A stretch of 64,000 nt of DNA from an uncultured Clostridia bacterium. GTDB lineage: Bacteria; Acidobacteriota; Aminicenantia; UBA2199. Under the pieces are notes generated by a model that had not been told where the DNA came from, did no database searches, and was given only the letters and a program-made list of their open reading frames with translations. The stretch spans positions 9,975 to 73,974 of the forward strand of contig CAYXHZ010000003.1 of assembly GCA_964465065.1 (NCBI GenBank), given 5' to 3'. Both the position numbers and the translations under genes were made by a program. Shown piece after piece: positions 8,897-51,288 of this stretch (the stretch's first letter is position 1; each line of letters starts with the position of its first letter).

Positions 8897-11602
8897 TTAT
8901 ACCCGCATCTGCGCACCGATAACAAGTCCGCTCATCTCCCCCCAGTTCACGCCGCTTTTCAGATCGACCCTGAGCGGCACCTCCAACCGGGCGACCTGTT
9001 CCATTTCCCGTTTCACCAGCTCGCTCAGGAAAAGCTCTTCATCGGCCGGATACTCGAAGACCAGTTCGTCGTGAACCTGCAGCAGCATACGGCTCCGCCT
9101 GCCCCGAAGCCGGTCGGCGATACGGATCATGGCCAGTTTGATCAGATCGGCCGCCGAGCCCTGAATGATGGTGTTGACAGCCATGCGCTGGCCGTTCTCG
9201 CGCACGCTGCGGTTGGAACTCTGAATTTCCGGGATATCTCGACGCCGACCCAGGAAGGTGGTGACCATGGCCTCCTGCTCGGCCCGGGCCAGCGTGTCGT
9301 CGATGAAACGGCGCACCCCGGCATAGGTGGAAAAGAAACGGTCGATCAGTTCCTTGGCCTCGTTGAAAGATACCCCCAGCTCCTTGCCCAGCGAATAGGC
9401 GCCGGTGCCGTACAGGATGGAAAAGTTGACGATCTTGGCCCGGCGGCGTTTCTCCATCGCGCTCAGGTCGTCACGGCCGGCAAAGACCTGGTCGGCCGTA
9501 TGGCGGTGAATGTCGAGATTGTTCGTGAAGGCCTCGATCAGCGAGGGATCGCGGGCGAAATGGGCCATGACCCGCAGCTCCACCTGAGAATAATCGGCCG
9601 CCAGCAGCTTCAGACCCGGAGCGGCCACGAAAGCCTTGCGCATGGAAATTCCGCCGATCTCGCCGACCGGGATGTTCTGCAAGTTGGGGTTGGAGGAGGA
9701 CAACCGACCGGTGGCCGCCACCGCCTGGTTGTAGGATGTGTGCACCCGGCAATCCCCGTCCAGCTCTTCGGCCAGAGCGACGACGTAGGTCGACAGCAGT
9801 TTCTTGAGGGCCCGGTATTCGATGATCCGGTCGACGATCGGCACACCGGCCAGCTCGGCCAGGACCTCGGTATCGGTGGAATAGGCGCCGGTCTTGCGGG
9901 TTTTTTTTCCGGAAGGCAGGTTCATCTTTTCGAAGAGCAGCTCGCCCAGCTGCTGCGAGGAATTGATGTTGAAGGAAAAACCGGCCAGGCTGCAGATCTC
10001 CAGGGTCAGGCTGTCGATACGCCGGGTCAGGGCCCGCCGCGACAGTTCCAGAAAGGTCTTGTCCACCCGGATACCCAGCGATTCCATATCGGCCAGCACA
10101 CCCAAGAGCGGCATTTCCACGTCCCGGTAGAGAGACTGCAGGCCTTTCTCGGCCAGCGTCGGCGCCAGGAGCTGCACCAGTTTCAGGGCGCACTGCGAAT
10201 CGTCGGCGCAGTACTCGGCGGTTTCGGCCACGGGTACATCCTGCAGCGGACGGCTGCCCTTGCCGCTGCCGGTCAAATCGGCGTAGCTGCGTTGCCTGAT
10301 CTTGAGATATTCGCCGGACATGTCCTTGAGCTGATGGTTGCGCCGGTTGGGGTGCAGCAGGTAGCCCAGAACCATCGAATCGTCGAACTCGCCGCGAACC
10401 GTGAACCCTTTGTGCAACAGGTGGATGAGATCGAACTTGAGGTTGTGACCGGCCTTGGCGATGGCGGGCTCGCCCAGAAGCGGCGCGGTGGCCGTGACCG
10501 CCTGTTCCAGGCTCAGAAACGGACCGTCGGCCGCCGGCCCGGCCAGCGGGATGTAGAAACGGCCGGATTCGCCGACCATGGACAAACCGATCAACCGGGC
10601 CGCATGGGGACGCAGATCGCTGGTCTCGACATCGACGCCGATGCGCGGCTCTGTACGCAGGGCGGCCTGCATGGCGGCCACATCGTCCGGATTGCGCACG
10701 ATAAGCGTGTGCCCGACGGGCCTGACGGGCTCCTGTTCGTCAACTTCGGTCTCGATCCCCAGGCGGGTGGCCAAGCTGCTGAATGCCAGCCGCTCGAGCA
10801 GCGGTGCCAGGGCCTGGCGCGGAGCCGGATCGAAGCCGGGAACCGTTTGCGTGAACGGCGGCAGGGCGGCAGGCGACAGGTCCACCAGACGGCGCGACAG
10901 GCGCAGTGACTCCAGGTTCTGGGCCACTTTCAGCAGCAGCTTGTCTTTGCTTTCCAGCACGGCGGCCGCAATCAGGCTGTCCAGGCTGGCAAACCGGTCG
11001 AGCAGCTTCTGGGCGCTCTTCTCGCCGATACCCGGAACGCCGGCGATGTTGTCGGAACTGTCCCCGCACAGCGCCAGGAAATCGACAATGCGATCGGGCC
11101 TGACTCCGTACAGGTCGTGGATCCCCCGTTCGTCCAGCAGAGTTTTCTCTTTGGGATGGTAGACCCGGACGCCCGGTCCGACCAGCTGGAACAGGTCCTT
11201 GTCGGCCGTAAAGATGATCGCTTCACCACCTGCCTGCCGCTGACGGTGGGTCAGGGCGGCGATGATGTCGTCGCCCTCGACGCCGGGCTGACGCAGGAGC
11301 GGTATGTTCCGCAGCTGCAGGTATTCCTCGATCAAAGGCAGTTGCCGGATCAATTCCTCGGGCGGGGCATCCCGTTTGGCCTTGTACTGGGGCAGCAGCT
11401 GGTGACGGAAGGTTTTCTCGCGGGAATCGAAGGCCACCACCACCTGGCCGGGACTCAGCTCGTCGAGCATGGCCTCGACCCGGCTGATGAAGCCGAAAAC
11501 CGCCCCGGTCGGGACACCGCCCATGGTCCGCATCTGCGGGTTGGCGTAAAAGGAACTGAACGTCAGGTACATGCCGTCGATCAGCAGCAGGGGGTGCGTC
11601 AT
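8897..11602 (-). CDS. polA: DNA polymerase I
   Basis: 5'-exonuclease (LLLIDG, VEGDDII, GVPGIGEKSA), 3'-5' exonuclease (DVETS, HNLKFD, YCADD), polymerase (TGRLSSSNPNLQNIP, ADYSQVELR, LLQVHDEL). Confidence 0.98.
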   Translation of the reverse strand: MTHPLLLIDGMYLTFSSFYANPQMRTMGGVPTGAVFGFISRVEAMLDELSPGQVVVAFDSREKTFRHQLLPQYKAKRDAPPEELIRQLPLIEEYLQLRNIPLLRQPGVEGDDIIAALTHRQRQAGGEAIIFTADKDLFQLVGPGVRVYHPKEKTLLDERGIHDLYGVRPDRIVDFLALCGDSSDNIAGVPGIGEKSAQKLLDRFASLDSLIAAAVLESKDKLLLKVAQNLESLRLSRRLVDLSPAALPPFTQTVPGFDPAPRQALAPLLERLAFSSLATRLGIETEVDEQEPVRPVGHTLIVRNPDDVAAMQAALRTEPRIGVDVETSDLRPHAARLIGLSMVGESGRFYIPLAGPAADGPFLSLEQAVTATAPLLGEPAIAKAGHNLKFDLIHLLHKGFTVRGEFDDSMVLGYLLHPNRRNHQLKDMSGEYLKIRQRSYADLTGSGKGSRPLQDVPVAETAEYCADDSQCALKLVQLLAPTLAEKGLQSLYRDVEMPLLGVLADMESLGIRVDKTFLELSRRALTRRIDSLTLEICSLAGFSFNINSSQQLGELLFEKMNLPSGKKTRKTGAYSTDTEVLAELAGVPIVDRIIEYRALKKLLSTYVVALAEELDGDCRVHTSYNQAVAATGRLSSSNPNLQNIPVGEIGGISMRKAFVAAPGLKLLAADYSQVELRVMAHFARDPSLIEAFTNNLDIHRHTADQVFAGRDDLSAMEKRRRAKIVNFSILYGTGAYSLGKELGVSFNEAKELIDRFFSTYAGVRRFIDDTLARAEQEAMVTTFLGRRRDIPEIQSSNRSVRENGQRMAVNTIIQGSAADLIKLAMIRIADRLRGRRSRMLLQVHDELVFEYPADEELFLSELVKREMEQVARLEVPLRVDLKSGVNWGEMSGLVIGAQMRV

Positions 11603-38304: not shown

Positions 38305-38372
38305 CAACCACTGCTCCTAGCAGCAGTATGCCACAACATCACCGGCCCGCCACCCCCTCGGCGGGCCATTTT
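38305..38372 (+). ncRNA. Candidate ~70-nt small RNA (two hairpins)
   Basis: Lies between the promoter above and a terminator; internal hairpin ACTGCT-CCTAGC-AGCAGT (38310-38327). Confidence 0.35.
38344..38372 (+). terminator. Intrinsic terminator-like hairpin
   Basis: GGCCCGCC-N8-GGCGGGCC followed by ATTTT. Confidence 0.7.
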
Positions 38373-38396: not shown

Positions 38397-38420
38397 GGGG
38401 ACGGTGCGTCACGATGTCAC
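38397..38420 (+). repeat. Solitary copy of the RAYT-associated 24-bp repeat
   Basis: GGGGACGGTGCGTCACGATGTCAC; 22/24 identical to the reverse complement of 51265-51288. Confidence 0.85.
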
Positions 38421-38428
38421 TCGATACA

Positions 38429-38890
38429 TCATTTGAAATTGAGCCGATAGAAAATCTGCCTGCCGTCCCAGCGTTGCGAATAACTGGTAAAACCAAAGCT
38501 TTGGTATATTTTCTGAGAGGCGACGTTGCGCTCGTTCGTATCCAGACACATGGTCTTACAGCCGAGCTGCCTGGCCCGCTGAACGGCGAATTCGATCAGC
38601 TTTCGGCCATAACCGGTTTTGCGGCATCCAGGCTCAACATACAGATCCTCGATCGTGGCCTCGCTACCGGATGCCCACATGCTATGCCGGTAACGCTGCA
38701 GCACATACCCGATAGCCTGCCCGTCGCTTTCGGCGAGGTAGAATTCGGCATCCCCGGCTGCGAGCAGTTCCTGGATGCTGTGCAGGAGCATGGAATCGGC
38801 AGGAAGCGCCCGCTGCAGGTGGTTGCGAAACGCGACAGCCAATTCGGCGATGGCCTTGGCATCGCCTGCCGTGGCAATACGTATGTTCAT
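38429..38890 (-). CDS. GNAT-family N-acetyltransferase
   Basis: IEDLYVEPGCRKTGYGRKLI motif A, N...SQKIYQSFGF motif B. Confidence 0.92.
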   Translation of the reverse strand: MNIRIATAGDAKAIAELAVAFRNHLQRALPADSMLLHSIQELLAAGDAEFYLAESDGQAIGYVLQRYRHSMWASGSEATIEDLYVEPGCRKTGYGRKLIEFAVQRARQLGCKTMCLDTNERNVASQKIYQSFGFTSYSQRWDGRQIFYRLNFK

Positions 38891-49971: not shown

Positions 49972-50009
49972 CAAATAAACCGGCAAAGAACACAAAAAGC
50001 GCTCACCGC

Positions 50010-50169
50010 GCTCATCGGGGACGGAGCGTCACAACGTCACAGTTTATCCGCCTTTTTTTCTTGTTCGCACCCTTCGAAAAATCATCCTCAAACCACTGAG
50101 ACCAATATCCGCAAAAATATCGAAGCGCGATATATCCCGATACCTCAGCCCTGCCTTTTCTTTTAGCAA
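50010..50169 (+). repeat. 160-bp direct duplication (repeat unit plus 3' end of the transposase gene)
   Basis: 50010-50169 is identical to 50206-50365; an extra repeat unit sits between them (50170-50202). Confidence 0.92.
50017..50040 (+). repeat. RAYT-associated 24-bp repeat, copy 1 (copies 2 and 3 at 50179-50202 and 50213-50236)
   Basis: GGGGACGGAGCGTCACAACGTCAC, containing a GACG-GAG-CGTC mini-hairpin. Confidence 0.92.
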
Positions 50170-50239
50170 GCGCTCATCGGGGACGGAGCGTCACAACGTC
50201 ACGGGGCTCATCGGGGACGGAGCGTCACAACGTCACAGT

Positions 50240-51145
50240 TTATCCGCCTTTTTTTCTTGTTCGCACCCTTCGAAAAATCATCCTCAAACCACTGAGACCA
50301 ATATCCGCAAAAATATCGAAGCGCGATATATCCCGATACCTCAGCCCTGCCTTTTCTTTTAGCAAAAACAACAATTCGTTGCGCAGGCGTTTCCCCTCAG
50401 CACTACCGGGATCGAGTCCATCCAGTTTTACCTGATGGATTCCTTCAAACTCCCGGATTACCTTATCAACGGGATCATGGAACAGATCATCCACTCTACG
50501 ATGTTCCAAACTGAACCCGTCGGAACGTCTTTCCGATCTTTCCAGCGCTGCAGGCACAAACTCATCTCCACCAACAATCAGCCCCATCGGTGTCGGCACC
50601 ACCGGAAGCAAAAGCAAATCCTCGAGCCCGGTAATAAAACCAGACATTTCCTTCATACTTCCAAACAGACTCTCAACATAGGCAGAATCAAGCCATGGCA
50701 ATGGCTCGTTAATGAAGTATGTCCCTGCACTAGACCACCGATAGCTCAAATAATCATTTTGCAAACCAGCCCGGACAGGGTTATTCAGTACATACGCCAG
50801 GACGATCATTAGGTACGCATCATCCTGAACAAGCATCGACTTGTATCGGTCCTGAAACAGGTAGCCTCTTCCACCATACTGTTGCCGATAATATGTTGCA
50901 TATTGGCCATTGAGCTGTTTGAAAAAATCAGCCAAGCGATCACTTGTATCTTGCACAACGAGATGATAGTGATTTTTCATGATACAAAACGCCAATATTC
51001 TTATCTTTTCCTGAGCTTGTAAGATCGCAAGCAGATTTAAAAAAAACTGCCTGTCCTGGTCGGTGTGGAAAATTGTACGTCCCTCGTAACCCCGGTTCAT
51101 CGCATGATGAAATGCCCCTTCGTACGTGATTCTGGCCCGTCTCAT
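50240..51145 (-). CDS. REP-associated tyrosine transposase (Y1_Tnp / IS200-like) with C-terminal HTH-like extension
   Basis: MRRAR...FHHAMNRG, HUH motif MKNHYHL, LFQDRYKS, catalytic YVLNNPVRAG, YRWSS. Confidence 0.93.
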   Translation of the reverse strand: MRRARITYEGAFHHAMNRGYEGRTIFHTDQDRQFFLNLLAILQAQEKIRILAFCIMKNHYHLVVQDTSDRLADFFKQLNGQYATYYRQQYGGRGYLFQDRYKSMLVQDDAYLMIVLAYVLNNPVRAGLQNDYLSYRWSSAGTYFINEPLPWLDSAYVESLFGSMKEMSGFITGLEDLLLLPVVPTPMGLIVGGDEFVPAALERSERRSDGFSLEHRRVDDLFHDPVDKVIREFEGIHQVKLDGLDPGSAEGKRLRNELLFLLKEKAGLRYRDISRFDIFADIGLSGLRMIFRRVRTRKKGG

Positions 51146-51264
51146 GTATTTATAGTTACTATATAATATTTTTGTAATCAAGTCATTGTTTTTTTAAATA
51201 ATTTTTCACTGCAAAAACAATTTCTGAATTAGCATAAACGGATTTGTCGTAGACAAAAATAACC

Positions 51265-51288
51265 GTGACGTTGTGACGCACCGTCCCC
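51265..51288 (-). repeat. RAYT-associated 24-bp repeat, inverted copy upstream of the transposase
   Basis: GTGACGTTGTGACGCACCGTCCCC on the + strand. Confidence 0.92.

Follow-up and report, generated by a model that had tools for sequence, protein, structure and literature searches.

A single-copy TIRYT element beside serS in an Aminicenantia genome and the paired repeat units that its helix-turn-helix domain may read

Introduction

RAYT-like genes that are flanked by terminal inverted repeats (TIRs) and not by repetitive extragenic palindromes (REPs) were named TIRYTs, and the units that they form TIRtrons, by Di Nocera, De Gregorio and Rocco (2013, BMC Genomics 14:522; PMC3733652). By their account, some of these TIRs have the motif GGGGWSAS in common, the distances between the repeat arms and the gene are constant, TIR families occur occasionally as single or dimeric copies elsewhere in low numbers, and one genome can hold several differently decorated genes. 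In this study we describe an element of this kind in a 64,000-nucleotide stretch of contig CAYXHZ010000003.1 (positions 9,975 to 73,974), from assembly GCA_964465065.1 of an uncultured bacterium whose lineage is placed in the Aminicenantia; this whole stretch is referred to below as the window. The element consists of a gene for a HUH/Y1 protein of 301 amino acids (aa), bracketed by inverted arms, and comparison with related loci resolves each arm into two parts, a family-wide head at the outer edge and, after a 3-nt linker, two direct 8-bp units that are specific to the element. We consider it likely that this is a resident single-copy TIRtron whose TIRYT reads the units by a C-terminal helix-turn-helix (HTH) domain, and acts on the head and in trans on arms.

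A later survey by Quentin, Siguier, Chandler and Fichant (2018, BMC Genomics 19:475; PMC6006769) found 20 of 26 TIRYTs in subclass 2.1 of the TnpA_REP proteins, which is marked by the length of the protein, a serine-containing motif after the core, a C-terminus resembling Bac_DnaA_C, HTH_23 or HTH_28, and the lack of REPs nearby. Because GGGGWSAS is unlike a DnaA box, the same survey doubted that the HTH reads the TIR. Our full-text literature search found no later work on TIRYTs. By its described features the window element fits into this class: like a TIRtron it has a RAYT-like HUH/Y1 gene within TIRs, a short distance between arm and gene, a G-rich head and TIR copies elsewhere (one solo arm in the window, and extra arms at 6 of 67 related loci), and like subclass 2.1 it has a long class-2 Y1 protein with conserved serines (S138 and S139) after the catalytic tyrosine. 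Its head, GGGGACGG, matches GGGGWSAS at seven of eight positions, with G and not A at position 7, and most of about 65 relatives likewise carry GGGGACGG. A first-pass annotation of this DNA, made from the letters of the sequence, had proposed a new RAYT/REP family; since RAYT-like genes with non-palindromic TIRs and GGGGWSAS heads were named TIRYTs in 2013 and equated with subclass 2.1 in 2018, that proposal does not stand.

The locus also differs from what has been described. The accessible part of the 2013 description gives the head motif and mentions no linker, no units with an 8-nt period, no concerted evolution and no promoter, and the window element itself has GC-rich units (GTCAC, against mostly TTGACA-like ones) and three downstream arms. 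Compared with subclass 2.1, the DnaA_C likeness of the window clade emerges only via an intermediate clade, and our data indicate that the HTH targets the inner units rather than the head.

Two better-known groups provide further reference points. The TnpA_REP protein (RAYT) of E. coli, with its REPs, bacterial interspersed mosaic elements or REPINs, resembles the window element in fold (4er8), in its HUH motif and tyrosine, in being a single-copy and vertically kept gene, and in its inverted cognate repeats; moreover, gene-less doublets found among the relatives fold into long hairpins as REPINs do. The E. coli protein, however, has 165 residues and lacks an HTH, and REPs are GTAG-headed palindromes that are recognised as hairpins and occur in hundreds of copies, whereas single arms of the window family do not fold and their copies are few. 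The TnpA elements of the IS200/IS605 group are distinguished by subterminal hairpins at both ends in the same orientation, the absence of TIRs, and multiple identical copies; in contrast, the ends of the window element are inverted and non-folding, and it is present as a single copy at a fixed locus across metagenome runs.

Results

A shared arm design with element-specific units

Loci of relatives were obtained by a protein-guided scan of one genome per species, which returned 80 loci. The metagenome-assembled genomes concerned are labelled as Aminicenantes, WOR-3, Stahlbacteria, Elusimicrobia, Spirochaetota, Cloacimonadota, Thermodesulfovibrionales, Chrysiogenales, Bipolaricaulota and others, about ten phyla altogether, and several of them hold three to five divergent paralogues of the family. 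Inverted repeats of one design bracket about 65 of the 70 genes for which both flanks were available. At the outer edge of each arm lies the head, (G)GGGACGG, which is replaced by GGTGACGG or AGCCCGG in some clades; it is followed by a linker of three bases, TGC in about two thirds of cases, and by two direct 8-nt units, mostly TTGACAnn, with a T-rich tail after them. Rarer unit types are TTTAC, TTGTA, TTGAA, TTGCAT, CTGCAT, GTGTGA, GTATAA, GTAAA and ATAACA.

At a period of 8, unit 1 and unit 2 have an identity of 0.79, whereas none of the periods 5-7 and 9-11 gives more than 0.37; the value of 0.79 within an element compares with 0.56 between units of different elements (permutation p ≤ 1e-4). 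From these comparisons, the two units of an element appear to evolve in concert. The nearest relative outside the species (P0002, locus L106; 65% identity) illustrates this: its upstream arm reads GGGGACGG-TGC-ACCACTTC-ACCAC and its downstream arm ACCACAAC-GCCAC, and all four units differ jointly between the window element (GTCAC twice) and this relative (ACCAC twice). Against this background the window element is ordinary for its class except for its unusual units, a displaced promoter and a polymorphic duplication of arms, which are described below.

In the window, the pattern GGGGACGG(A/T)GCGTCACAACGTCAC brackets the HUH/Y1 gene as inverted copies at 50213-50236 (+) and 51265-51288 (-), with no mismatch in either. 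The 24-nt pattern GGGGACGGWGCGTCACAACGTCAC has four mismatch-free copies at the locus, at 50017, 50179 and 50213 (+) and at 51265-51288 (-), and a fifth copy with two mismatches lies at 38397; in 100 dinucleotide-preserving shuffles of the window there were no matches. Two of these copies, the exact direct ones at 50017-50040 and 50179-50202, had been overlooked earlier and bring the left side to three arms. The inverted arms extend to 28 nt with a complementarity of 93%. Following the design of the relatives, the window arm is parsed as GGGGACGG-TGC-GTCACAAC-GTCAC. The downstream arm closest to the gene (copy C) directly adjoins the stop codon at 50240-50242, and the same outside flank of 9 nt, GCGCTCATC, precedes both copy A and copy B. 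The remaining coordinates are collected in Table 1.

Covariation of the units with the C-terminal domain

The two parts of the arm vary with different parts of the protein. In Mantel tests, for which 55 non-redundant elements were used, differences in the linker track the HUH domain (rho 0.22, p 0.001) and show no correlation with the C-terminal domain. Differences in the units track the C-terminal domain (rho 0.15, p 0.017), also in a partial test on the HUH domain (0.136, p 0.027); controlling for the C-terminus leaves them uncorrelated with the HUH domain. When mutual information was calculated column by column, bases 1, 4 and 5 of the unit paired best with residues 288, 289 and 293, all of which lie on the last helix of the protein.

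Residue 288 is glycine in about 57 elements, nearly all of which have a first unit beginning with T. It is arginine in the window protein and in three relatives (L029, L030 and L032), where every unit begins with G (GTCAC, GTAAA, GTGTGA, GTATAA), and two Arg288 proteins that were picked later, L110 and L111, have G-initial units as well; counting these, Arg288 is found in all six elements whose units are all G-initial. Alanine, serine or proline at this position accompanies units that begin with A or C or are mixed. On a neighbour-joining tree the four Arg288 proteins stand at no fewer than three separate places, next to neighbours with glycine or serine, and L106, the sister of the window protein, has Ser288. 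The hhalign registers place residues 288, 289 and 293 opposite L438, H439 and K443 of E. coli DnaA, in the region that forms the major-groove recognition helix of the 1J1V complex. Arginine with guanine is a textbook base contact.

The first-pass annotation had suggested that an HTH may read the duplicated (C)GTCAC of the repeat, and this is the part of it that gains real support from the comparison: the concerted change of all four units, the correlation of the units with the C-terminus only, and the pairing of Arg288 with G-initial units in at least three lineages all argue for such recognition.

Identity of the C-terminal domain

Residues 224-300 of the window protein are predicted to form four helices (pLDDT 86-94). 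The identity of this domain became apparent through a sister clade, the second tier of relatives, whose members have 314-334 aa and match the full-length family profile with E-values of ~1e-41 to 1e-46. Pfam Bac_DnaA_C was detected in nine of the ten sister-clade proteins tested, at residues ~234-300, in four cases above the gathering score. Alignment of profiles with hhalign matched the sister-clade C-termini to those of the window clade (96.4%, E 1e-9, 73 columns) and also to genuine DnaA domain IV (99.5%, E 7e-23). On the basis of this bridge to both sides we conclude that the extension ends in a diverged HTH of the DnaA-domain-IV type, and the HTH-like C-terminal extension noted in the first-pass annotation is to that extent borne out.

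Other approaches to the C-terminus yielded no assignment. A direct hhalign comparison of the C-terminus with E. coli DnaA was not significant, the C-terminal profile had no match among PDB sequences, and a single-sequence fold of the C-terminus (pLDDT 71) gave no meaningful Foldseek match. A match to DUF5070 (E 0.017 at full length, 0.0012 for the domain only) occurred in one member only and was disregarded.

The nuclease domain

Pfam Y1_Tnp covers residues 22-121 of the window protein (8e-11), and the remaining 180 residues have no Pfam match above threshold. The top NCBIfam match is REP_Tyr_transpos (NF047646), with 58.3 bits, under the equivalog cut-off of 80. The start codon used here is the ATG that matches the N-termini of all relatives (MRRARITYEG...). 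Across a 24-member alignment no substitution is seen at H59, Y118, S138 or S139, while Y60, H61 and W137 occur in at least 90% of members. For 239 relatives (E ≤ 1e-5), of about 300 aa each, the alignment spans 93-100% of the length, and the C-terminal extension of about 160 aa is conserved at full length in them. The family profile, searched against 1.84 billion cluster representatives, recovered 1,790 clusters (50% identity) at E ≤ 1e-30. JGI labels relatives 'REP element-mobilizing transposase RayT'.

The AlphaFold2 model of the window protein has a mean pLDDT of 85, with a confident N-terminal alpha/beta domain. Its best match among solved structures is E. coli TnpA_REP with a REP hairpin (4er8; E 5.6e-6, TM-score 0.70 on the target), covering residues ~8-140 of the window protein, and the next matches are IS200/IS605 transposases. 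As modelled, the N-terminal domain has the TnpA_REP fold with its HUH motif and tyrosine intact, in agreement with the earlier assignment of the protein as a RAYT-type HUH/Y1 enzyme. At one locus of a Stahlbacteria genome (L033, gene 10001-10888 and beyond) the frame, counted from where the tblastn match begins, continues to 476 aa, well past the usual C-terminus of the family; this long frame may be a fusion or a missed stop.

Composition and folding of the window element

Several statements of the first-pass annotation about the DNA itself are confirmed, namely the inverted 24-bp repeats around the gene, the low GC of the transposase gene (0.46, against 0.586 for the window), and the distinction of the repeat from a classical REP, the arms being non-palindromic. 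Single arms of the window element and of six relatives fold no better than shuffled sequences, and on this ground they are not REPs. The 4-bp hairpin that had been described does exist in the window arm, but its folding is at chance level (z = -1.0 and -1.8 against shuffles) and it is absent from the arms of relatives, and we reject it as a functional REP-like stem.

An Rfam search at the locus gave no match. The exact repeat pattern had no match in 185,579 species genomes, the host genome not being among these representatives. A looser pattern gave five matches in JGI metagenomes, all of them single, with no TIRYT-type arms around them and mostly in very GC-rich DNA, and we read these as chance. 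The terminator-like hairpin outside arm copy A (Table 1) consists of GAGCGC-GGTGA-GCGCTT followed by a T run, and its GAGCGC part is included in the duplicated 33-nt arm units.

Promoter geometry

The GG of the upstream arm lies exactly 39-40 nt from the ATG in 36 of 58 relatives (L013-L088, for example L037 and L044). The layout in these cases is GG, 3 nt, a TTGACA-like unit 1, 17 nt that include unit 2, TAnnnT, 5-6 nt and the ATG; TAnnnT is lacking behind the downstream arms of relatives. Judged by its motifs and spacing, this layout corresponds to a sigma-70-type promoter with unit 1 as the -35 box and a predicted start at or next to the ATG. An mRNA that begins there would be leaderless, and the protein, when bound to the units, would block the promoter of its own gene.

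In the window element the upstream arm lies 137 nt from the ATG, and because of this distance the coupling of arm and promoter appears to have been lost; its unit 1 reads GTCACA. The sole promoter-like match in the region, ATGACT-17-TATAGT, is weak when taken alone, since shuffles average 2.4 matches. L106 has a displaced promoter arrangement like that of the window.

Stability of the locus and a polymorphic duplication

We used Logan unitigs from eight public metagenome runs (X1-X8), which represent wastewater, biogas fermenters, a bioreactor and an aquatic sample. In each of the eight runs the TIRYT gene has the same two neighbours, serS and the ABC-F gene, one on either side, and the window contains the TIRYT gene only once. 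The element had been thought possibly still mobile as a unit, which these observations do not bear out. Among the relatives, L003/L010 and L109, which share 55-58% identity with the window protein, have the same NTP_transf_3 (MobA-like) gene directly downstream, and their units (ATAACAAT/ACAACAAT) are near-identical; the shared neighbour of L003 and L109 suggests long vertical residence in related genomes.

A duplication of 196 bp adds two arms and the last 129 nt of the gene to the downstream side, and a 167-nt stretch at 50003-50169 recurs at 50199-50365. The junction unitig 50173-50235, which runs from arm B to arm C, was found in X1, X2, X3, X5, X6 and X7, and 50140-50199 was found in X2, X3 and X6 as well; in X3 the duplicated unitig 50011-50169 has about twice the depth of the flanks (59 vs 28-30). 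A contig of X8 jumps exactly 196 bp, from 50009 to 50206, and the duplication is also absent in X4 and in an independent contig, L001, where the order is gene, one arm, serS. As it is seen in some runs and absent in others, the duplication is real DNA that is polymorphic among natural populations, and not an assembly artefact.

Arms away from the gene and breaks at the head

In the window, a solo diverged arm (Table 1) follows a terminator-like GC hairpin (~38340-38365). An inverted GGGACGG at 38463-38469, 71 nt from the solo arm, was considered as its doublet partner and rejected as unproven, with no folding above shuffles; having no units and lying inside the 3' end of the open reading frame 38429-38890 (-), it is probably a chance occurrence. 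Among the related loci, one or two extra cognate arms were found in the flanks of 6 of 67 (1.02 Mb), and inverted doublets 50-145 nt apart occur at L019 (12539/12684), L080 (11290/11392), L082 (16709/16760) and L085 (466/521). As single strands, three of these gene-less doublets form long hairpins whose G+C-rich heads lie at the foot (z -5.8 to -11.5). Some arms have the head but units unlike those of the neighbouring gene (L037 at 5187 and 12498, L039 at 14577, L086 at 11719); these arms are presumably those of further paralogues in the respective genomes.

At 11-12 of about 130 arm edges, a stretch of 7-22 nt made up of outside flank and part of the GGGGACGG head is exactly duplicated in tandem, where about 1 case would be expected from the locus-wide rate. 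Such duplications were found at L011 (6893-6925), L068 (9933-9972) and both arms of L110, and also at L023, L024, L031, L034, L044, L051 and L072. Those of L011, L023, L068 and L110 can be placed so as to end exactly at GGGACG^G (^ marking the boundary), and the others end 2-3 nt earlier or 2-8 nt later. In run X7, two low-depth unitigs depart from the reference at exactly 51281^51282, which is GGGGACG^GTGC in the upstream arm; the gene side runs into TGATATCATATAAAAGCCC, the flank side is preceded by TGTCCTTTTAATGGG, and these foreign ends were not found in the window. The X7 junctions are either an insertion in a subpopulation or a product of breaking and joining. Taken together, the arm-edge duplications and the X7 junctions are suggestive of footprints of breakage and rejoining at the head.

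Table 1. Positions of the features of the TIRYT element and its arms in the window
Feature	Position	Strand	Basis or remark
TIRYT gene, 301 aa + stop	50240..51145	-	Open reading frame list, Pfam, NCBIfam, AlphaFold2 model
HUH motif H59-Y60-H61	50963-50971	-	Codon positions
Catalytic Tyr118	50792-50794	-	Codon positions
W137-S138-S139	50729-50737	-	Codon positions
C-terminal helical domain, residues 224-301	50243..50476	-	AlphaFold2 helices, hhalign chain, covariation
Arg288 codon	50282-50284	-	On last helix (residues 284-300), proposed recognition helix
Upstream (5') arm, GGGGACGG TGC GTCACAAC GTCACGGT	51261..51288	-	Parse from family comparison
Upstream arm, head	51281-51288	-	
Upstream arm, linker	51278-51280	-	
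Upstream arm, unit 1	51270-51277	-	
Upstream arm, unit 2	51262-51269	-	
Downstream (3') arm, gene-proximal copy C, GGGGACGG AGC GTCACAAC GTCACAGT	50213..50239	+	
Extra arm copy B	50179..50202	+	Pattern scan; junction unitig 50173-50235 in metagenome runs
Distal arm copy A	50017..50040	+	Has the outside-flank context of the downstream arm in the allele without the duplication
196-bp duplicated segment, present or absent among populations	50010..50205	.	Run unitigs, contigs
Duplicated last 129 nt of gene, without own start	50041..50169	-	Identical to 50237-50365
Terminator-like hairpin outside arm copy A	49997..50013	-	Consensus match only
Promoter-like ATGACT-17-TATAGT	51158..51186	-	12 nt before ATG; outside arm
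Solo diverged arm, GGGGACGG TGC GTCACGAT GTCAC	38397..38420	+	Intergenic spacer

Discussion

The explanation that we favour for the window element, a resident TIRtron whose TIRYT reads its own units, can be put into mechanistic terms. Two HTH domains would bind the two 8-bp units as duplex DNA, be it normal double-stranded DNA or the stem into which an arm pair folds when single-stranded, so that every paralogue would have an address of its own. Base 1 of the unit would be read by residue 288, where the putative recognition helix begins, arginine going with G and glycine with T, and in the window element the units would have shifted to GTCAC along with a glycine-to-arginine change at this residue. 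The HUH/tyrosine centre would cut and join in the conserved head and linker, perhaps at or near GGGGACG^G. The enzyme would also act in trans on gene-less arm pairs (hairpins as single strands, in the manner of REPINs) and on solo arms, and could thereby generate and maintain a small dispersed repeat family. In typical relatives, binding at unit 1, the predicted -35 box, would repress the gene of the enzyme itself. We also entertain, more tentatively, a stronger version that we think possible but on balance doubtful, in which the TIRYT is a modular, address-guided HUH nuclease: its DnaA-type HTH would read the unit pair as 8-bp iterons, Gly288Arg together with the T-to-G exchange would re-set its specificity, the cut would fall at GGGGACG^G, an arm that is also the promoter of a leaderless mRNA would make the system self-titrating, and both the arm-edge duplications and the 196-bp duplication would be footprints of nicking.

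Several points weigh against the favoured explanation. Binding, cleavage and the cut site of the TIRYT are all inferred. The effect of the units in the Mantel tests is small, comes from about ten exploratory tests and ignores kinship, and the z-scores of the mutual information likewise ignore phylogeny; L110 and L111 are clade-mates of L029 and L032. Aligned directly by hhalign, the clade C-terminus and DnaA domain IV show no significant match (P 0.024, probability 2%), though the register is as expected, and HTH matches from Pfam within the clade are all below threshold (Sigma70_r4_2 in 4 of 41 members, HTH_23 in 3 of 41). The boundaries of the arm-edge duplications scatter from -7 to +8 around the proposed cut, and the X7 junctions come from one run only, at low depth. 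Lastly, dispersed copies are few, with one diverged solo arm in the 64-kb window, so that any part the TIRYT plays in the spread of repeats may be a weak or a past one.

Other readings account for parts of these data. With one gene between inverted repeats of 24-28 bp, the element has the anatomy of an insertion sequence, and an autonomous one that still transposes as a whole might be suspected from its GC of 0.46 in surroundings of 0.59, which hints at foreign origin, from the three to five family members in several genomes, and from the local rearrangements at arms. We nonetheless regard this as quite improbable: serS and the ABC-F gene are constant neighbours across wastewater, biogas, bioreactor and aquatic samples, no second gene copy is present in the window, no target-site duplication is evident, and the position of L003 and L109 next to the same NTP_transf_3 gene suggests long vertical residence. 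Moreover, paralogues within one genome are 40-58% identical and have different units, and so are not recent copies. Still less credence is due to the proposal of a new family of classical RAYTs with cognate REP or REPIN repeats, which we consider highly improbable even though the NCBIfam model for REP-associated tyrosine transposases is the best model match, JGI names relatives RayT, TnpA_REP is the best structural match, and the arms are inverted around the gene like REPs around RAYT genes. The NCBIfam score of 58 bits falls short of the cut-off of 80, the protein has an HTH domain and roughly double the length of a RAYT, and only five arm copies were found in the window, four at the locus and one solo. 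The arms are non-palindromic and have no GTAG or CGTC head followed by a stem, which by the palindrome criterion refutes a classical RAYT, and the combination of features seen here is the one already named TIRYT.

A purely regulatory role of the arms deserves mention as well. The protein would then be a DNA-binding autorepressor or site-specific factor with operator-like arms that loop the locus, nothing would be mobilised, and the HUH centre would serve some other task on single-stranded DNA. Such a role is in line with the promoter geometry of 36 of 58 relatives, in which unit 1 of the upstream arm supplies the -35 box for the gene and keeps a fixed distance from the start codon, with the rarity of dispersed arm copies and with the stability of the locus across samples, but it seems unlikely to us in view of other features of the family. 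The downstream arm is conserved as well as the upstream one although no -10 box lies behind it, and the window arm, which at 137 nt from the ATG is no promoter element, is conserved all the same. The HUH motif and the tyrosine have been kept (H59 and Y118 in all 24 aligned members, Y60 and H61 in 90% or more of them), gene-less cognate doublets that form long hairpins exist, and tandem duplications are enriched about 11-fold at the head.

The favoured reading of the TIRYT, a nuclease guided by its units, has partial parallels elsewhere. In the iteron-guided HUH Reps of rolling-circle plasmids, geminiviruses and circoviruses, direct repeats beside a conserved nick site set the specificity and co-vary with the protein. 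The parallel is one of analogy only, as these Reps lack the Y1 transposase fold, a DnaA-type HTH and an inverted pair of sites, and no replication function is indicated for the window element. With DnaA domain IV (1J1V) the relationship would be one of homology of the HTH, by the transitive profile match described above. The target of DnaA, however, is the 9-bp DnaA box TTATNCACA and not TTGACA-like or GTCAC units, and in the TIRYT the sites form a fixed pair 8 bp apart and the HTH is fused to a nuclease.

Within the HUH/Y1 superfamily the TIRYTs form a large branch. The 2018 survey did not settle whether the flanking repeats are recognised by their DnaA-like HTH, and the family comparison presented here names a candidate site, a candidate helix and, within it, residue 288, together with a candidate cut and a regulatory coupling. 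If the model holds, it would explain how many paralogues can be present in one genome without cross-talk, and the TIRYT would be a naturally re-addressable nicking enzyme.

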